Virus record (IMG/VR): IMGVR_UViG_2651869755_000011
Location: 1 to 5,710 of that record
Reading direction: 5' to 3' (one strand)
Source of the DNA: a virus
Taxonomy: Duplodnaviria; Heunggongvirae; Uroviricota; Caudoviricetes
DNA length: 5,710 nucleotides
Below the pieces are notes generated by a model. It saw only the letters and a program-made list of their open reading frames with translations. It was not told where the DNA came from and searched no databases. Shown here piece by piece: positions 451 through 4,864 of this stretch (position 1 is its first letter; every line of letters starts with the position of its first letter). The position numbers and the translations under genes were made by a program.

Positions 451-783
451 AAAGCTGTGCAGTACGTTAAACACGCTTGTGGTTGTGAATGCCGACTGCG
501 GCGGTATTTTGGCGTGACAGCGCAGGTGCCGTATACCGATGTCTGGACGCATAAACCGGTGCAGTTCTATCCCGGGAAACATCCGTGCGAAAAACCGGCA
601 GAAATGCTGCAGCAGATAATCAGCGCAAGCAGTCGTCCGGGAGACCTGGTTGCAGATTTTTTTATGGGCTCAGGTTCAACGGTAAAAGCGGCACTGGCGC
701 TCGGGCGTCGTGCGATTGGCGTTGAACTGGAGACCGGACGTTTTGAGCAGACAGTCAGGGAAGTTCAGGATTTAATCGTTTGA
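451..783 (+). pseudogene. N6-adenine (N6/N4 family) DNA methyltransferase, C-terminal remnant; the N-terminal catalytic region is missing
   Basis: The 108-aa ORF (457-783, GTG start) contains HPCEKP and DFFMGSGST, which resemble the conserved HPTQKP and AdoMet-binding F-x-G-x-G motifs at the C-terminal end of beta-class amino-methyltransferases. The frame is closed at 448-450 and the 200 bp upstream is noncoding, so no DPPY catalytic motif can be present. Confidence 0.65.
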
Positions 784-832: not shown

Positions 833-908
833 GGCCCTTTAGCTCAGTGGTGAGAGCGAGCGACTCATAATCGCCAGGTCGCTGGTTCAAATCCAGCAAG
901 GGCCACCA
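833..908 (+). tRNA. ileZ: tRNA with CAU anticodon, tRNA-Ile2 (lysidine type, AUA decoder) by similarity to E. coli ileX; tRNA-Met cannot be excluded
   Basis: Manual cloverleaf: acceptor GGCCCTT/AAGGGCC, D-stem GCTC/GAGC, anticodon loop CTCATAA (anticodon 866-868), T-arm GCTGG-TTCAAAT-CCAGC, encoded CCA at 906-908. The symbol follows the ileZ-argN-argO cluster described in Stx-type prophages. Confidence 0.85.
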
Positions 909-915
909 TCACATA

Positions 916-992
916 CCGCCATTAGCTCATCAGGAAAGAGCGCCAGCCTTCGAAGCTGGTTGCGCGGAGTTCGGGTCCCCGAAGGCGGTCCA
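916..992 (+). tRNA. argN: tRNA-Arg(UCG)-like, atypical and possibly degenerate
   Basis: Manual fold: perfect 5-bp anticodon stem CCAGC/GCTGG with loop CTTCGAA (anticodon 950-952), canonical U8/A9, D-stem GCTC/GAGC, encoded CCA at 990-992. It also has an A-A mismatch in the acceptor stem, an A-C mismatch in the T-stem and a T-loop of TTCGGGT (G where A58 is normally conserved). Confidence 0.5.
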
Positions 993-1005
993 TTATCTGT
1001 ATCCT

Positions 1006-1082
1006 GCGTTGTTAGCTCAGCCGGACAGAGCAATTGCCTTCTAAGCAATCGGTCACTGGTTCGAATCCAGTACAACGCGCCA
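1006..1082 (+). tRNA. argO: tRNA-Arg(UCU), AGA decoder
   Basis: Manual cloverleaf with perfect acceptor stem GCGTTGT/ACAACGC, D-stem GCTC/GAGC, anticodon stem ATTGC/GCAAT with loop CTTCTAA (anticodon 1040-1042), T-arm ACTGG-TTCGAAT-CCAGT, discriminator G and CCA at 1080-1082. Confidence 0.85.
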
Positions 1083-1097
1083 CACTTATTTTCCCTG

Positions 1098-1121
1098 GCT
1101 CGCTTTTGCGGGCTTTTTTTT
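1098..1121 (+). terminator. Intrinsic terminator directly after the tRNA cluster
   Basis: Stem GCTCGC (1098-1103) pairs with GCGGGC (1108-1113), one G-U pair, loop TTTT, followed by eight T (1114-1121). Confidence 0.6.
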
Positions 1122-1127
1122 AAATGT

Positions 1128-1341
1128 CTCACAATTCAGGCGGTTGACTGTTGTCTGGTTTGCGGGGAGTTTGTTAAAAGAAACTGGCATGGTGAATCCC
1201 CCTGTGCGGAGGGGCAATCAGCGAGTAGGTATATGGGATAATCGCGGATTCAGGTGCTGGTACTGAATTCACCGGGAGGCACCCGGCACCATGCAATGGC
1301 ACATAGCGCCACTCTCCAGCCCCTCTCCGGAGGGGCTTTTC
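1128..1341 (+). repeat. Copy A of a duplicated noncoding module (candidate small-RNA or regulatory unit) ending in an intrinsic terminator
   Basis: Shares ordered blocks with copy B: CTCACAATTCAG, TTGAC(T/A)GTTG, TTTGTTAAAA(G/A)AAA, GCATGGTGAATCCCCCTG(T/A)GCGGAGGGGC, TGAA(T/C)TCACCGGGAGGCACCCGGCACCATG and AGCCCCTCTCCGGAGGGGCTTT. Internal hairpins include CCCCT/AGGGG and CCGGG/CCCGG. Confidence 0.75.
1319..1340 (+). terminator. Intrinsic terminator closing module copy A
   Basis: 7-bp GC-rich stem GCCCCTC (1319-1325) / GAGGGGC (1330-1336), tetraloop TCCG, then TTTT (1337-1340). There is no U-run on the minus strand, so it acts on the plus strand only. Confidence 0.65.
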
Positions 1342-1396
1342 TGTGCCGGATACATCACAGTTTCTGGAACCTTAGGTACTACAGTATCAGTCAGGG

Positions 1397-1405
1397 TGCT
1401 ATATT
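1397..1405 (+). promoter_or_regulatory. Candidate extended -10 promoter (TGcTATATT) for a short transcript ending at the 1532-1558 terminator
   Basis: TG at 1397-1398 and hexamer TATATT at 1400-1405; no convincing -35. About 150 nt downstream is an intrinsic terminator. Confidence 0.3.
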
Positions 1406-1531
1406 TTCAGATGTGATGAAAGCCTGTCAGCAGGCAGGGCGTATCGGAAATGACCCAGTAGAGAAAACGTTGACTCAGATACCGGTGCTGAGTTACCGGG
1501 AAACCGGCATCACATGACCGCTATCCTTCCA

Positions 1532-1558
1532 GGCCCATCCGCTCCGGTGGGCCTTTTT
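1532..1558 (+). terminator. Intrinsic terminator
   Basis: Stem GGCCCA(T)CCG (1532-1541) pairs with CGGTGGGCC (1545-1553), giving 9 bp with one bulged T around loop CTC, followed by TTTTT (1554-1558). Confidence 0.6.
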
Positions 1559-1595
1559 ACTGCAGAAAACAGGTTCCCCGTTAAATGCTATGTTG

Positions 1596-1829
1596 CTCAC
1601 AATTCAGTAAGTTGACAGTTGCCTGTCAGACTGGGCATTTGTTAAAAAAATTTCGCATGGTGAATCCCCCTGAGCGGAGGGGCGACTGGTGACGGTATAA
1701 TCTCTGATTATCAAAACGAGAATGACGCGGGTTTAGTGGCACCGGGCTGAACTCACCGGGAGGCACCCGGCACCATGTGCATGATGATACAGATACGCGG
1801 CTTTAGCCCCTCTCCGGAGGGGCTTTCTT
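1596..1829 (+). repeat. Copy B of the duplicated noncoding module, ending in an intrinsic terminator
   Basis: Same ordered conserved blocks as copy A, with variable sequence between them. It contains a perfect TTGACA (1612-1617) inside the palindrome TGACAG-N4-CTGTCA (1613-1628) and a perfect TATAAT (1696-1701). Confidence 0.75.
1806..1829 (+). terminator. Intrinsic terminator closing module copy B
   Basis: Stem GCCCCTC (1806-1812) / GAGGGGC (1817-1823), loop TCCG, then TTTCTT. Confidence 0.6.
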
Positions 1830-1835
1830 ATGGAC

Positions 1836-1864
1836 AAAAAAAGCCCGCGCTGGGAGACGCGGGC
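1836..1864 (-). terminator. Minus-strand intrinsic terminator, convergent with the copy-B terminator
   Basis: 7-bp stem GCCCGCG (1843-1849) / CGCGGGC (1858-1864) with an 8-nt loop. On the minus strand the hairpin is followed by seven U (plus-strand A-run 1836-1842); there is no U-run on the plus side. Confidence 0.5.
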
Positions 1865-1932
1865 GGCAAGGAATAAACAATAAAACGTGAAGTAATATTT
1901 CAGCTGGCGAATAATACCCCATAGTAATCACT

Positions 1933-1955
1933 CTGCGCAACTGCGCGGTCTTTTT
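1933..1955 (+). terminator. Intrinsic terminator-like hairpin upstream of the esterase gene
   Basis: Stem CTGCGC (1933-1938) / GCGCGG (1943-1948) with one G-U pair, loop AACT, followed by TCTTTTT (1949-1955). Confidence 0.45.
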
Positions 1956-2057
1956 CGAATTGCGGGCTGTAGTCTCCCTTCTGCCATTGTCCTGTAACTT
2001 CCGGACTTCAGCCTGCTCCTTATCTGACTCACAACATTATCCCGCCCGGGAGGATTC

Positions 2058-3911
2058 ATGGCATTTAAACACTATGACGTGGTCAGGGCGGCATCGCCGT
2101 CAGACCTTGCGAAACGACTGACACAAAAACTGAAGGAGGGCTGGCAGCCGTTTGGTAGTCCGGTGGCCATAACCCCTTATACCCTGATGCAGGCGATTGC
2201 AGCAGAAGGTGATGTGGTCGTCAGTGGTGCAACTGAGCCGGAGTGGTACTACGTCATCGTACTGGCCGGGCAATCCAATGCCATGGCTTACGGTGAAGGG
2301 CTTCCGCTTCCGGATTCATACGATGCGCCCCATCCGCGCATTAAGCAACTGGCCCGTCGTAACACAGTGACTCCCGGTGGTGAAGTATGCGTATTTAACG
2401 ACATCATTCCTGCTGACCATTGTCTGCATGATGTTCAGGATATGAGTACGATTAACCATCCCCGGGCTGACCTGAGCAAAGGGCAGTACGGCTGTGTCGG
2501 ACAGGGCTTACATATTGCCAAAAAACTGCTTCCGTATATCCCTAATAATGCGGGGATCCTGCTGGTACCATGCTGTCGTGGTGGTTCGGCATTCACCCAG
2601 GGCACGGAGGGGACATTCAGCGAGTCCACGGGAGCCAGTCAGGATTCGGCTCGCTGGGGAGTGGGTAAGCCGTTATATCAGGATCTGCTTTTCCGCACGA
2701 AGGCAGCATTGCAGAAAAACCCGAAAAACGTTTTGCTGGCGATATGCTGGATGCAGGGGGAATTCGATATGACGAATGCCAGTTACGCCCAGCAGCCAGC
2801 AGCATTTCTTGCAATGGTACAGCAGTTCCGTGCTGACCTTGCCGGGCTGGCAGCGCAGTGTCACGGTGGAAGTCCGGCATCAGTCCCCTGGATTTGTGGC
2901 GACACGACATACGCGTGGAAACAAGAACACGGTACGCAATATGAAGTGGTATATGGTGCATATAAAGGTAAAGAATCCCAGCAGATTTATTTTGTTCCCT
3001 TTATGACCGATGGTAGCGGAGTTAATACACCGACAAACAACCCGTCAGAAGATCCTGATATTGTCGGGTCTGGTTATTACGGTTCGGCATCCCGAACGAA
3101 CAAAAACTGGGTATCATCAAATCGCCCGACGCATTTCAGCTCATGGGCGCGTCGTGGCATTATTCCCGATCGTATGGCAACTGCTATTCTGAACGTAGCC
3201 GGTCGCACCTTAGCCTTCATTAGTGGTAAGGCACCGGAAATCAAACTCTCGCCCGGCGGCGACACGCCATCGGGGCCGTCTGAAGATGCATCCATACGCA
3301 CAATCTCCCTGTTGCCGACAGCCGGAGACGCTGCTGCGCAGGGCTGGAGCATTAAGAATGGCGGAATTCAGTTGTCAGATGGTGTATTTAAGATCACCAA
3401 GCAGAGCAATAAAGCCTGGTCCCTGACGCGCCCGGTGGATGACGCAGTCTCCCTGCTGACACGGGGTGGCAGACTGAGCTGTAAGTTTCGACTGTCAGGC
3501 GCACTGACCAACAATCAGTTCGGTCTGGGAATTTATCTGTATACCGATGTAGCGTTACCTGACGTCGTGGCGATGACCGGGACTGGTAACCCGTTCCTGA
3601 TGTCGTTCTTCACCCAGACCACAGACGGCAAACTGAATCTGATGCATCACAAGAAAGCAGGAAACACAAAGTTGGGCGAGTTCGGGAATTACAGTAACGA
3701 CTGGCAGACGCTGGAGCTGGTGTTCACCGCCGGCAGTGCCACGGTTACTCCGAAACTGAATGGAGTGGCTGGCCCGGCATTCCAGGTCATAAAAGACAGT
3801 CTGACACTGGGGCTGAATGCGCTGACGCTGACGGATATTACCAAAAATGCAGCGTATGGCGTTGAGATAGAAAGTCTGGTGCTGGAGATAAATGCACCGG
3901 CATCATCATAA
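2058..3911 (+). CDS. nanS-p: Prophage-encoded sialate (N-acetylneuraminate) O-acetylesterase, NanS-p-like: N-terminal DUF1737-like region, SGNH/SASA esterase core, long C-terminal domain of unclear function
   Basis: 617-aa ORF with SD GGGAGG 7 nt upstream of the ATG. The N-terminus MAFKHYDVVRAASPSDLAKRLTQKLKEGWQPFGSPV and the esterase block I motif VIVLAGQSNAMAYGEG (putative catalytic Ser73) match the NanS-p family of EHEC prophages as I know it. The position after the tRNA cluster and before the holin is typical. Confidence 0.88.
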   Translation: MAFKHYDVVRAASPSDLAKRLTQKLKEGWQPFGSPVAITPYTLMQAIAAEGDVVVSGATEPEWYYVIVLAGQSNAMAYGEGLPLPDSYDAPHPRIKQLARRNTVTPGGEVCVFNDIIPADHCLHDVQDMSTINHPRADLSKGQYGCVGQGLHIAKKLLPYIPNNAGILLVPCCRGGSAFTQGTEGTFSESTGASQDSARWGVGKPLYQDLLFRTKAALQKNPKNVLLAICWMQGEFDMTNASYAQQPAAFLAMVQQFRADLAGLAAQCHGGSPASVPWICGDTTYAWKQEHGTQYEVVYGAYKGKESQQIYFVPFMTDGSGVNTPTNNPSEDPDIVGSGYYGSASRTNKNWVSSNRPTHFSSWARRGIIPDRMATAILNVAGRTLAFISGKAPEIKLSPGGDTPSGPSEDASIRTISLLPTAGDAAAQGWSIKNGGIQLSDGVFKITKQSNKAWSLTRPVDDAVSLLTRGGRLSCKFRLSGALTNNQFGLGIYLYTDVALPDVVAMTGTGNPFLMSFFTQTTDGKLNLMHHKKAGNTKLGEFGNYSNDWQTLELVFTAGSATVTPKLNGVAGPAFQVIKDSLTLGLNALTLTDITKNAAYGVEIESLVLEINAPASS

Positions 3912-3996
3912 AAAGTGAGCCAGCCAAATGGAAGGTATCGTTAAACTCACCGGTAGTGTCAGTGGGTCGTCTGAGATGCCTGCATGAGTTATCAGA

Positions 3997-4026
3997 GCCA
4001 TCAGTACTTAACTGGTGGCTTTTTTT
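3997..4026 (+). terminator. Intrinsic terminator between the esterase gene and the holin
   Basis: 8-bp stem GCCATCAG (3997-4004) / CTGGTGGC (4012-4019) with one G-U pair, 7-nt loop, followed by TTTTTTT (4020-4026). Confidence 0.5.
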
Positions 4027-4061
4027 ATTGTTGTCAGCTTCCGGATAACGGGAGACGGGGT

Positions 4062-4277
4062 ATGTACCAGATGGAAAAAATCACAACAGGTGTGTCATAC
4101 ACCACGTCAGCGGTGGGAACGGGCTACTGGTTCCTGCAGTTGCTGGACAGGGTTTCCCCGTCTCAGTGGGCGGCAATAGGCGTGCTGGGGAGTCTGCTGT
4201 TTGGGCTGCTGACATATCTGACTAACCTGTATTTCAAAATCAGAGAGGACCGTCGTAAGGCTGCACGGGGAGAGTAA
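4062..4277 (+). CDS. S: Class II holin (phage 21 S-type pinholin), 71 aa, with dual-start motif MYQM (Met1 at 4062, Met4 at 4071)
   Basis: [71 protein letters not shown] closely resembles the phage 21 S protein as I recall it, with two hydrophobic segments and a charged C-terminus. SD GGAGACGGGG lies upstream. The ORF-track start at 3984 would add an N-terminal extension that overlaps the upstream terminator and has no RBS. Confidence 0.85.
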
Positions 4278-4281
4278 TTCA

Positions 4282-4626
4282 ATGACTCAAAACTATAAAC
4301 TGATTGTGAAAGGGATCCGCAATTTTGAGAATAAAGTTACGGTAACTTTAGCGTTACGGGACAAAAAACGCTTTGACGGTGAAATTTTTGACCTGGACAT
4401 CTCGCTGGACCGTGTTGAAGGTGCCGCGCTGGAGTTTTATGAGGCAGCAGCCAGAAGGAGCATCAGACAGGTCTTCCTGGATGTTGCTGCCGGGTTATGT
4501 GAAGGGGATGAGCAGTCGCCGGAAAAGCGCCCCGTAATTTTAGAGGCGCAGGATGTGTTGATAACCTACAGAGGAAAACTACCGGGAATAATTACGGGTT
4601 CTCTGAAGAGTCCGCCGAAATGGTAA
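4282..4626 (+). CDS. Hypothetical 114-aa protein inserted between holin and endolysin (function unknown; possibly comparable to the uncharacterised genes found between S and R in some E. coli prophages)
   Basis: ATG at 4282 is 4 nt after the holin stop, with SD GGGGAGAG at 4267-4274, so it is translationally coupled to the holin. The sequence looks like ordinary coding sequence. I do not recognise the protein. Confidence 0.6.
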   Translation: MTQNYKLIVKGIRNFENKVTVTLALRDKKRFDGEIFDLDISLDRVEGAALEFYEAAARRSIRQVFLDVAAGLCEGDEQSPEKRPVILEAQDVLITYRGKLPGIITGSLKSPPKW

Positions 4627-4864
4627 TTTTACCAGCATATTTTTCATCCAGTAATACAGCAAGCCGCCTGAAAGAGTCTTGTTGTTCCTGAGACCATTTG
4701 GGATTGCATGATTCAAACTGGATTGATGCCAGCGTTGATTGCATCTGTTCCCTTGGAATTGAGAATGCCAGATATGAGAAGGCGACGGTAAGGGTATTCA
4801 CGTCTTCCCGAAGCCTGGAAATGCTGTCGAGCAACTCCTGTAGAGAAATGGTGTTATTGTCCAT
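4592..4864 (-). CDS. Possible 90-aa hypothetical protein on the opposite strand, convergent with and overlapping the 3' end of the 114-aa ORF by 35 nt
   Basis: Minus-strand ATG (4862-4864) is preceded by SD GAGGA at 7-nt spacing. A promoter-like pair lies upstream on the minus strand (TTGCCT, 19-nt spacer, TACAAT). It fills most of an otherwise unexplained 343-bp gap between ORF114 and the endolysin. No recognisable homology. Confidence 0.4.
   Translation of the reverse strand: MDNNTISLQELLDSISRLREDVNTLTVAFSYLAFSIPREQMQSTLASIQFESCNPKWSQEQQDSFRRLAVLLDEKYAGKITISADSSENP

Follow-up and report, generated by a model that had tools for sequence, protein, structure and literature searches.

The window analysed here, a 5,710-nt stretch of a Caudoviricetes record (IMGVR_UViG_2651869755_000011), carries three tRNA genes followed 3' by nanS-p (a SASA esterase gene), a holin gene and a lysozyme gene, an order that the initial annotation had recognised as that of Shiga toxin (Stx) phages. 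The interval between the tRNA genes and nanS-p (1083-2057) is occupied by three plus-strand modules, a convergent minus-strand gene and a series of intrinsic terminators (table 1). Anticodons and order of the tRNA genes equal those of ileZ2, argN2 and argO2 upstream of stx2A in Sakai Sp5, with the CAT gene being variously named Ile (PGAP, identical locus), ileZ2 (Sakai) and Met (ARAGORN). In identical loci the order is Q, a kinase/phosphatase gene, a methylase fragment, the tRNA genes, the 1083-2057 region and the SASA esterase gene. Insertion sequence (IS) elements interrupt the prophage copy on both sides, and in strain 118UI an IS lies within the first module.

Table 1. Features between the phage tRNA genes and nanS-p, including both borders; positions are those of the window.
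Feature	Position	Strand	Basis
tRNA cluster: tRNA(CAT), tRNA-Arg(TCG), tRNA-Arg(TCT)	833-1082	+	ARAGORN, Rfam tRNA matches
Terminator 1, end of tRNA cluster and left border of cargo slot	1097-1121	+	7-bp stem and U8, -11.4 kcal/mol
Module A, STnc100-family sRNA gene	1128-1348	+	Rfam RF02076 at 1158-1348, 136.3 bits, E 6e-31
Module B, divergent STnc100-like sRNA gene	1362-1562	+	Rfam RF02076 at 1387-1560, 30.1 bits, E about 1e-3
Module C, STnc100-family sRNA gene	1596-1835	+	Rfam RF02076 at 1626-1835, 165.4 bits, E 2e-38
Convergent sRNA gene, EcOnc08/21/42 / EPEC E2348C_1409-1408 IGR type	1836-1905	-	Terminator stem 1864-1843 and U7
Predicted promoter of convergent sRNA gene	1911-1940	-	-35 TTGCGC (1940-1935), 18-nt spacer, -10 TATTAT (1916-1911); sequence reading
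Hairpin/terminator 5	1933-1955	+	6-bp stem and UCUUUUU, -9.3 kcal/mol; overlaps -35 of minus-strand promoter
nanS-p 5' leader, Shine-Dalgarno GGGAGGA at 2048-2054	1956-2057	+	Sequence reading; collinear with Sp5 upstream of ECs_1207
nanS-p, SASA-family sialate O-acetylesterase, right border	2058-3911	+	617-aa ORF; PGAP name in identical loci

Based on the curated gathering score of 47 bits that sets membership in the STnc100 family (RF02076), modules A and C belong to the family and match its full-length model. Module B shares the common architecture, though its 30.1 bits fall below that score. Modules A and C each open with a leader block (1128-1186, which includes the proposed promoter, and 1596-1654), followed by the start of the closing helix, GCAUGGUG, at 1187 and 1655, and end in terminator 2 (1318-1344) and terminator 4 (1805-1831), respectively. 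Module B has TCACAGTTTC at 1362, a closing helix pairing 1411-1418 with 1509-1516, and terminator 3 (1531-1559) at its end. The repeats noticed in the initial annotation are genuine: identity is 80% between 1128-1215 and 1596-1683 and 97% between 1263-1293 and 1747-1777, and the terminator sequences 1318-1339 and 1805-1826 are the same. Over their whole length A and C share 70.6% identity and B shares ∼57% with either; these values, together with the occurrence of A-type and C-type modules singly elsewhere, led us to reject the idea that the array arose by recent tandem duplication. The motif CTCACAA (1128, 1596 and 2028) occurs three times against 0.94 expected, a count equalled in 10 of 200 shuffles, and its enrichment is not significant. 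PGAP marks no ncRNA features in identical loci, so that an annotation look-up alone would miss these genes.

The fold of the modules is conserved beyond their sequence. In a test set of 35 distinct modules and 30 base pairs, 98.2% of the cells were paired compared with 41-49% when partners were slid, double (compensatory) changes were found in 14 of the 30 pairs as opposed to 1-7 with slid partners, and none of 500 shuffles matched the observed structure value. Covariation supports the structure of modules A and C, and module B has retained its closing helix through four compensatory changes. The stretch between closing helix and terminator varies, by contrast with this scaffold, and falls into at least eight discrete types that are shuffled independently of the scaffolds carrying them. 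Because A and C differ in this putative seed stretch, they are probably not redundant.

A generic sigma-70 scan of 1083-2057 returned zero plus-strand promoters, and the promoters proposed here for that strand are based on conserved extended -10 elements and on the 5' end of PasD, an enteropathogenic Escherichia coli (EPEC) relative. Module A has an extended -10 (TGtTAAAAG, 1172-1180) that is kept in its relatives, module B has a near-consensus one (TGcTATATT, 1397-1405), and TGnTAAAA(A/G) lies 6-7 nt ahead of GCATGG in most of 34 distinct upstream sequences. PasD2 (172 nt by RNA-seq and northern) begins exactly at the homologous GCATGG. The 5' ends are ambiguous, however, as PasD starts from GCAUGG whereas Sakai EcOnc27 measures 235/247 nt and has an Hfq peak beginning 39 nt upstream of GCAUGG. 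By the latter observations, transcription would begin close to the conserved TCACAATTCAG block (1128/1596), or a longer transcript would be processed.

The convergent gene faces module C terminator to terminator, the plus-strand terminator at 1805-1831 adjoining the minus-strand one at 1864-1836. Directly 5' of its terminator stem is a putative seed, CCUUGCC (∼1872-1866), which complements GGCAAGG, the target motif of an EPEC sRNA known from RIL-seq, and the 3' seed-plus-terminator part matches that sRNA at ∼90% as judged by eye, without alignment statistics. The predicted promoter has a parallel in Sp5: there the mapped 5' end of AsxR is preceded by a TAAAAT hexamer, and TTGCGC again stands 18 nt upstream of that hexamer. 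We place the 5' end from this predicted promoter, which would give an RNA of ∼70 nt. Identity with AsxR or AgvB was rejected, as their Rfam models (RF02703 / RF02702) had no match at E<=10 in 1790-2060, with AsxR itself being recovered in Sp5 at 88 bits. OmrA-B, sRNA71 and other weak Rfam matches of this gene were rejected as terminator driven and below threshold.

A consensus scan recovered all of the five plus-strand terminators listed in the initial annotation, with stems at 1097-1114, 1318-1337, 1531-1554, 1805-1824 and 1933-1948 and hairpin energies of -11.4, -17.3, -16.3, -17.2 and -9.3 kcal/mol in that order (z -2.2 to -4.1). It also added a sixth on the minus strand, that of the convergent gene (-16.9 kcal/mol, z -3.9). 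The 10 terminator-like matches in 1083-2057 comprise these six distinct sites and nested versions of them; dinucleotide shuffles gave 0.9 ± 1.0. Terminators 2-4 form the 3' ends of modules A, B, and C, respectively. Terminators 2 and 4 have broken U-tracts (UUUUCUGU and UUUCUUAU), weaker than usual for Hfq-dependent sRNAs. Terminator 1 is kept in Stx phages upstream of stx2A, and hairpin 5 is kept upstream of nanS-p, with a near-identical element in Sp5 (locus L006, 4711-4733). Another plus-strand terminator lies directly ahead of the holin gene (3994-4029). The spacer between nanS-p and the holin gene (3912-4062) was also searched for a PasA/PasC homolog; BLAST of the EPEC PasA region against the window gave nothing and Rfam gave only subthreshold noise in the spacer, and this candidate was rejected.

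The initial annotation found nothing toxin-like between the tRNA genes and nanS-p, and our searches agree. No match better than E=0.6 was obtained in 1083-2057 by tblastn with Stx1A/B and Stx2A/B, and blastn of stx cassettes produced only noise of 15-25 nt. The stxA-stxB pair that characterizes Stx-converting phages between the tRNAs/Q and nanS-p is thus absent, with no Stx1 or Stx2 protein or DNA similarity in the window; stx remnants and an stx promoter were likewise rejected, none being found.

Comparison with Stx phages places the toxin genes precisely. STnc100 is reported to lie 75 nt after stx2 (PMC12370729). In Sakai Sp5, stx2B is followed at a distance of 75 nt by STnc100 (207.7 bits), then by the minus-strand AsxR gene, the same hairpin and nanS-p, a layout with which the window is collinear. 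Against Stx2a phages the window is ∼90% identical over 682-1120 and 89-90% identical over 1597-2165, the homology breaking at 1120 and resuming at 1125/1597. From 1597, module C into nanS-p is collinear with the Stx2a phages and with the stx-negative phage phi296 at 88.8-90% identity. Module C is the ortholog of the Stx2-phage copy downstream of stx2B. These collinear segments uphold the suggestion that the locus is a stx-negative relative of an Stx phage. What the initial annotation had named as refuting its reading of the slot is also observed, in that Stx2 and Stx1 phages (Sakai Sp5, two Stx2a phages and a Stx1c phage) carry the same module or modules directly after stxB, in addition to the toxin genes. 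The two Stx2a phages (L003 and L004) and phi296 have one module each, the Stx1c phage has two tandem STnc100 copies after stx1B, and the infective phage PhiR5_2 has the same A-B-C array with a module B copy scoring 30.0 bits. In Stx phages stxAB lies precisely in the gap from the tRNA terminator to the first module, and the equivalent of that position here comprises modules A and B only (1125-1596); module C and everything downstream is the constant neighbor of stx. The stx genes, where present, are inserted at the left edge of the cluster, after the terminator of the tRNA genes and ahead of the first module, without replacing the cluster.

The interval from the tRNA terminator to nanS-p holds stx2AB, stx1AB, TerB-like ORFs or one to three sRNA modules in 56 related loci, with a gap of 450-3602 nt. 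This variety bears out the proposal that it is a site of cargo exchange. A-type modules stand alone as the single module in many of these loci. The full array is present in 353 of 5,426 complete E. coli genomes and module B in 673 of them (∼12%), the type strain included, as two sequence types (≥99% and 90-95% identity). E. coli ML35 matches 1083-2057 at 100% identity, as does ATCC 11775 for module B. Module B is also present in five phage records, unannotated there as in the genomes, and was not found in any record named as an Stx phage.

We conclude, with a probability of roughly 0.8, that 1083-2057 consists of four sRNA genes, each with a terminator of its own, that occupy the stretch from the phage tRNAs to nanS-p, the "moron" site of the lambdoid late operon. 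Family membership of A and C, the conserved structure, synteny and the breakpoints are the observed basis of this conclusion. Modules A, B, and C are built on one scaffold, in which a helix closed by the 5' and 3' parts encloses internal hairpins and is followed by a single-stranded stretch of variable sequence and an intrinsic terminator; A and C belong to the STnc100/EcOnc27 family, B is a divergent relative, and in the related PasD the variable stretch is the seed. The fourth gene, apparently of the EcOnc08/21/42 type with a CCUUGCC seed, would converge on module C from the minus strand. In a lysogen, we predict, transcription of each gene runs from a separate sigma-70 promoter to the gene's own terminator and yields an sRNA that associates with Hfq and acts in trans on mRNAs of host and prophage. 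Once the prophage is induced, Q-modified polymerase starting at pR' would pass every one of these terminators and go on to transcribe nanS-p and the lysis genes; Q and PR' themselves fall beyond the window. For this copy we infer expression, 5' ends, Hfq dependence, targets and Q read-through. The terminator-resistant, Q-dependent expression of nanS-p and the lysis genes that the initial annotation had implied is plausible by analogy with Stx phages, whose late genes are Q dependent (PMC7547250, PMC10462455), although it may be lost in this copy because IS elements disrupt the prophage on both sides.

The same late-gene requirement for Q invites a different reading, in which the interval is a gene-free spacer whose terminator stack silences nanS-p and the lysis genes until Q-modified polymerase arrives. 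Six terminator-like hairpins in 975 nt compared with 0.9 expected, and a further one before the holin gene, are consistent with such a function, but we consider it unlikely: terminators 2-4 each close a conserved, covarying RNA with its own conserved -10, one terminator faces the opposite direction, and members of the family are discrete Hfq-bound RNAs in uninduced cells. Nor is a stack required, because the same late genes are preceded by far fewer terminators in relatives that have a single module or protein cargo. Since the interval is made up of four sRNA genes, most of its terminators can be regarded as ordinary gene ends. The description of the slot as only noncoding and terminator-rich therefore stands as to its many terminators and lack of a credible ORF, and fails in that it is composed of sRNA genes, three of the five plus-strand terminators being their ends.

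It is quite improbable that A and B are functionless, decaying duplicates of a functional C, left as recombination debris at a hot spot. The divergence of the modules (70.6% for A and C, ∼57% for B), the score of B under the Rfam threshold and the mosaic, IS-prone nature of the locus, as in 118UI, are what such decay would leave behind. Module A, however, scores 136 bits with terminator and -10 intact, and A-type modules are the sole module in many loci. The closing helix of B was saved by four compensatory substitutions next to a near-consensus extended -10, and B is retained in 673 genomes as two sequence types. The array is also found in the infective PhiR5_2.

An action in cis on the late transcript, either as put-like antitermination or as processing or stability elements for the nanS-p and lysis mRNA, would suit modules that lie inside the late operon in the same orientation, whose conserved leader block is free of any assigned function, and whose relative EcOnc27 is longer than the PasD-type transcript and hence compatible with processing of a longer RNA. 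We nonetheless hold it to be very unlikely given that the modules close with their own terminators, the opposite of what antitermination needs, that many Hfq-dependent chimeras with unlinked mRNAs are known from RIL-seq for PasD and for the EPEC counterpart of the minus-strand RNA, and that the variable segment is seed-like, its discrete types shuffling independently of the scaffold. That the region encodes small proteins, as "hypothetical protein" annotations have it, is barely credible: PGAP and PHANOTATE call short minus-strand ORFs, and one of these (1626-1766) has a YmjE-like Pfam match (14 bits, E 0.05) that we dismissed as weak along with one to FlgM (also 14 bits), but the longest ORFs of 1083-2057 (42-93 aa) match zero families at the Pfam threshold, PGAP itself labels the ORFs partial pseudogenes, those of A and C use differing frames of homologous sequence, and substitutions track base-pairing, not codons.

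The main value of the sRNA-gene reading is as a correction, in that an apparently empty toxin slot is densely filled with sRNA genes which PGAP leaves blank or calls pseudogene fragments. It also fixes exactly where stx is inserted, downstream of the tRNA terminator and ahead of the first STnc100 module, and identifies the downstream sRNA cluster as common to stx-positive and stx-negative phages. The gain for sRNA biology is modest, namely tandem arrays with differing seed stretches and a widespread divergent module B missed by the Rfam threshold; a limited literature search found no description of either tandem STnc100 arrays or module B. More tentatively, and with considerable doubt, the stx/moron slot may have STnc100-type sRNA genes among its exchangeable cargo, with arrays (A-B-C, A-B-A, A-Sp5-type and C-C) arising by recombination between coresident lambdoid prophages, the seed stretch being swapped as a cassette and module B constituting an unannotated sister family.

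Among the closest known systems is EcOnc27/sRNA103 of enterohemorrhagic E. coli (EHEC) O157:H7, with which STnc100 overlaps (PMC12711010). Like it, A and C match the full 206-position model with the same closing helix and terminator, and they share the CCCCC...GGGGG and ACCGGGAGGCACCCGG hairpins, the upstream block and the place upstream of nanS-p. Here, however, two full tandem copies and a divergent third are present without stx upstream, and the stretch from closing helix to terminator differs in both A and C. PasD1 and PasD2 of EPEC E2348/69 (Pearl Mizrahi 2021; Zhu, Shabalina and Storz 2026 preprint) similarly lie directly upstream of a SASA esterase gene and resemble the modules in their 5' end (GCAUGGUGAAUCC), -10 (TAAAAA), overall architecture and length class, the STnc100 model giving PasD2 41 bits. 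The TCACAATTCAG leader block is missing from PasD, whose -35 (TTGACT) is canonical; the alignment extends over the first 30-60 nt only (76-83% identity), and the PasD seed CCUUGUGAG, by which membership was judged, is absent from A, B, and C. The PasD copies are also far apart (Zhu, Shabalina and Storz 2026 preprint), whereas the modules here are tandem.

The minus-strand gene resembles EcOnc08/21/42 of Sakai Sp4 and the EPEC sRNA "E2348C_1409.E2348C_1408.IGR", whose 3' part, ...CACGUUUU.UUGUU.AU.CCUUGC.CCCGCGUCUCCC.GCGCGGGCUUUUUUU, is common with 1905-1836 and whose CCUUGC(C/G) seed is complementary to the RIL-seq motif GGCAAGG/GGCAGGG. These RNAs are published as ∼182 nt (EPEC coordinates) and ∼271 nt (EHEC northern), in contrast to the ∼70 nt predicted here. 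StxS and the lambda 6S RNA are likewise small RNAs of the late region ending at terminators that Q-modified polymerase must pass (PMC7547250), but they arise, as short PR'-tR' transcripts, from PR' directly downstream of Q and are unrelated in sequence, whereas the genes described here lie 3' of the tRNAs, each with its own predicted promoter.

Pairs of sRNA genes that converge on one another at the moron site, 3' of PR', have been described before, including EcOnc27, which is Hfq-bound by CRAC and confirmed by northern (PMC4104026). These pairs, EcOnc27 with AsxR in Sp5, and AgvB in Sp10/Sp17, oppose a plus-strand STnc100-type gene to a short minus-strand gene terminator to terminator, as in the window, with the conserved hairpin and nanS-p next and all lying 3' of Q/PR' (Tree et al. 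2014). They differ in the minus-strand partner, which here is not an anti-sRNA of the AsxR/AgvB type, a family marked by a conserved ∼42-nt 3' region and a variable 5' end, and which has a different 3' region and terminator. The convergent-pair layout at the moron site is thus already published (Tree et al. 2014), and the sRNA families are already described in Stx phages; the locus is an ordinary one of its kind.

The interval between the tRNA cluster and nanS-p (1083-2057) holds three plus-strand STnc100-type sRNA genes, modules A, B and C, and a fourth, convergent gene on the minus strand. Modules A and C are full-length matches to STnc100 (RF02076) and module B is a weak one. The five plus-strand hairpins with T-runs and the repeated modules noted in the initial annotation are real; a consensus scan recovered all five where they had been placed, together with a strong minus-strand site. 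Its 10 terminator-like hits within 1083-2057 represent six distinct sites, versus 0.9 ± 1.0 in shuffles, with hairpin energies of -9.3 to -17.3 kcal/mol (z-scores -2.2 to -4.1). Describing the interval as only noncoding, terminator-rich sequence is nevertheless misleading, because the terminators are gene ends: terminators 2, 3 and 4 are the 3' ends of modules A, B and C, respectively, and the minus-strand terminator is part of the convergent gene. Terminator 1, after the last tRNA, is kept upstream of stx2A in Stx phages. By established lambdoid biology, expression of nanS-p and the lysis genes would require Q-modified polymerase to run through these terminators (PMC7547250, PMC10462455); such a requirement would follow from the placement of the sRNA genes and would not be evidence of a dedicated barrier.

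Features of the 5,710-nt window
Feature	Position	Strand	Basis or remark
IS3-family element, 5' part	1-243	minus	window's left end
PP2C phosphatase gene, 3' end	244-345
DNA-methyltransferase 3' fragment	457-783		ORF list, PGAP of near-identical loci
tRNA(CAT), tRNA-Arg(TCG), tRNA-Arg(TCT)	833-1082		ARAGORN
Terminator 1	1097-1121	plus	consensus scan
Module A	1158-1348	plus	Rfam, 136.3 bits
Terminator 2	1319-1340	plus	consensus scan
Module B	1387-1560	plus	Rfam, 30.1 bits (under gathering score 47)
Terminator 3	1532-1558	plus	consensus scan
Module C	1626-1835	plus	Rfam, 165.4 bits
Terminator 4	1806-1829	plus	consensus scan
Minus-strand terminator	1864-1843	minus	consensus scan
Hairpin 5	1933-1955	plus	consensus scan
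nanS-p (SASA-family esterase)	2058-3911		ORF list, PGAP of near-identical loci
Spacer terminator	3994-4029	plus	12-bp stem + U7
Class II holin	about 4062-4277		ORF list, PGAP of near-identical loci
YdfR-family gene	4282-4626		between holin and lysozyme
90-aa ORF	4592-4864	minus	overlaps YdfR-family gene
Lysozyme	from 4970		ORF list, PGAP of near-identical loci
Second IS3-family element	from about 5466, to 5710	minus (orfB)	inverted repeat (TGAACCGCCCCGGGTTTCCTGGAGAG...), transposase orfB 3' end

From at least 120 IMG/VR loci sharing a conserved 24-mer, plus GenBank loci, 50 distinct module sequences were extracted and 35 aligned. RNAalifold returned a structure with a 5'/3' closing helix, internal hairpins and the terminator, with compensatory changes in 14 of 30 pairs. 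Counted on this structure, 98.2% of cells are paired versus 41-49% with slid partners, and 14 pairs are doubly changed versus 1-7, values matched by none of 500 shuffles. Module B keeps the closing helix through four compensatory substitutions (AUGUGAUG with CAUCACAU; GCAUGGUG with CACCAUGC in A and C). Modules A and C are 70.6% identical and B shares about 57% identity with each of them, ruling out recent duplication as the origin of the array.

The promoters and 5' ends given here for the modules are predictions. PasD2, a 172-nt sRNA of EPEC E2348/69 defined by RNA-seq coverage and northern blot, starts at GCATGGTGAATCC, homologous to window positions 1187 and 1655, with a TAAAAA -10 ahead. 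The motif TGnTAAAA(A/G), 6-7 nt ahead of GCATGG, is kept in most of 34 distinct upstream sequences and is replaced by TGcTATATT in B-type modules. EcOnc27, the STnc100 copy of the Sakai Stx2 prophage Sp5, measures 235/247 nt on northern blots, and its Hfq-crosslink peak begins 39 nt upstream of GCATGG, which suggests either that transcription starts near the conserved TCACAATTCAG block (1128 and 1596; in B, TCACAGTTTC at 1362) or that the RNA is processed out of a longer one. As these lines of evidence conflict, we give two candidate starts per module. Ahead of the closing helix (1128-1186, 1362-1410, 1596-1654), nearly every A-, C- or Sp5-type module has a conserved block, TCACA(A/G)TT...TTGA(C/T)..TTG(T/C)CTG, of which B has a part and which PasD lacks; candidate roles for this block are a 5' leader for the longer EcOnc27-type transcript, a second promoter and a site for a regulator. 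Within 2028-2040 the nanS-p leader carries CACAACA (2030-2036), which Tree et al. quote as the consensus sequence targeted by the R1 seed of GcvB; Sp5 has CACAAUA at this place. CTCACAA also starts modules A and C, and three occurrences are not a significant enrichment.

In the stretch from closing helix to terminator, the predicted seed in PasD, at least eight discrete types of sequence can be distinguished across the 35 modules, and they combine freely with differing central-hairpin types; A and C carry differing types. Seed stretch and central hairpin appear to recombine independently, as seen in a Stx2a-phage copy with an Sp5-type centre and window-A-type seed (L003 4559-4728), and in two other loci, one with a window-C centre and A-type seed (L089 1867-2041) and one with an A-like centre and C-type seed (L042 769-945).

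The minus-strand gene was considered as AsxR or AgvB, the EHEC anti-sRNAs, and rejected: it has no Rfam match to either at E<=10, while the same method gives AsxR 88 bits in Sp5. Towards its 3' end (...CACGUUUUAUUGUUUAUUCCUUGCCGCCCGCGUCUCCCAGCGCGGGCUUUUUUU) it is a close match to E2348C_1409.E2348C_1408.IGR, an EPEC sRNA from RIL-seq, equated with EHEC EcOnc08/21/42 by its RIL-seq authors, and its CCUUGCC complements GGCAAGG, the target motif of that sRNA. Hairpin 5, kept in Sp5, contains TTGCGC; on the minus strand, the hexamer 18 nt downstream of it, TATTAT, resembles a -10 element for the convergent gene, and the Sp5 counterpart, TAAAAT, precedes the 5' end mapped for AsxR.

Searches of 1083-2057 with Stx1/Stx2 proteins and stx cassettes gave only noise, upholding the absence of toxin-like content, and its short ORFs match no Pfam family above threshold. 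In stx-positive phages these modules are found alongside stx, the observation that the initial annotation had named as refuting its interpretation. Sp5 has the order tRNAs, terminator, stx2A, stx2B, STnc100, AsxR (on the minus strand), hairpin, nanS-p, its STnc100 copy scoring 207.7 bits and lying 75 nt beyond stx2B; two Stx2a phages share this layout with a single module apiece, and a Stx1c phage has two tandem modules after stx1B. The stx-negative phi296 has a single module directly after the tRNA terminator, and PhiR5_2, which infects MG1655, has the A-B-C array. Pairwise BLAST gives exact breakpoints: homology between the window and Stx2a phages ends at 1120 and restarts in module A at 1125 (77%) or in module C at 1597 (88.8%), continuing into nanS-p, which places the stx2AB insertion after the tRNA terminator and ahead of the first module. 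Module C and all that lies downstream are thus the constant neighbour of stx, whose position is taken in this window by modules A and B (1125-1596). Among the 56 loci listed with left anchor and nanS-p, a sample biased by the seeding 24-mer, 8 are stx-positive, always ordered stx, module(s), nanS-p, and 48 stx-negative, with one module in 37, two in 2 and three (A-B-C or A-B-A) in 9. The slot spans 450 to 3602 nt in these loci, some with protein cargo, for example a TerB-like ORF. This variable content supports a site of cargo exchange, and the collinearity of this stx-free window with Stx2a phages supports a stx-negative relative, as first proposed.

Of 5426 complete E. coli genomes, 353 carry the full 975-nt array and 2870 some part of it; in strain ML35 the identity is 100%. 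Module B is in 673 of these genomes, including type strain ATCC 11775, and in five phage records, none named as a Stx phage. A 195-kb E. coli plasmid record (NZ_CP195449.1, 187722-188662) covers 97% of the region at 91.5% identity and may be a phage-plasmid or a plasmid-borne prophage segment.

The window is a lambdoid E. coli prophage late region; in intact relatives the genes leading up to the sRNA interval run in the order Q, Ser/Thr kinase, PP2C phosphatase, methylase fragment, tRNAs. The left IS3-family element, whose InsC-like orfA N-terminus we take to be IS2-like, has removed the 5' part of the phosphatase gene. The right-end element, presumably IS629/IS1203-like from its inverted repeat, cuts the lysozyme gene about 13 codons short of its normal stop. 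With elements at both ends and lysozyme truncated, this prophage copy is damaged and probably lysis-defective. In strain 118UI (L002 5053-6266), an IS3-family element lies within module A of an otherwise identical array (corresponding to about 1244-1256). A possible hairpin + U5 at 420-442, upstream of the methylase fragment, is absent from the terminator scan list; its tail (434-453) resembles that of the module B terminator (repeat D7, 80%). The strong spacer terminator between nanS-p and holin (-17 kcal/mol, z -5.2) could mark the nanS-p 3' end or a 3'UTR-derived RNA. Upstream of Q, phi296 has isrK, C4 antisense RNA and c4-a1b1 target elements beside ant genes (Rfam; L005 229-424), additional phage sRNAs in the same genome.

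Our limited literature search turned up neither the tandem A-B-C arrangement nor any account of module B as a relative in its own right or of seed stretches shuffling independently. The kind of locus is already known, as convergent sRNA pairs have been described for the 'moron' site, 3' of PR', in Sp5, Sp3, Sp4, Sp9, Sp10, Sp11, Sp15 and Sp17 (Tree et al. 2014, PMC4104026), and STnc100 downstream of stx2 (PMC12370729, PMC12711010). In EPEC, PasA lies on the opposite strand of the nanS-p to holin spacer, whereas the window's spacer has no PasA homology. S and R are adjacent in the Stx phages compared but apart here, separated by the YdfR-family gene and the minus-strand 90-aa ORF. The PasD copies are mutually distant and not tandem (Zhu, Shabalina and Storz 2026 preprint).
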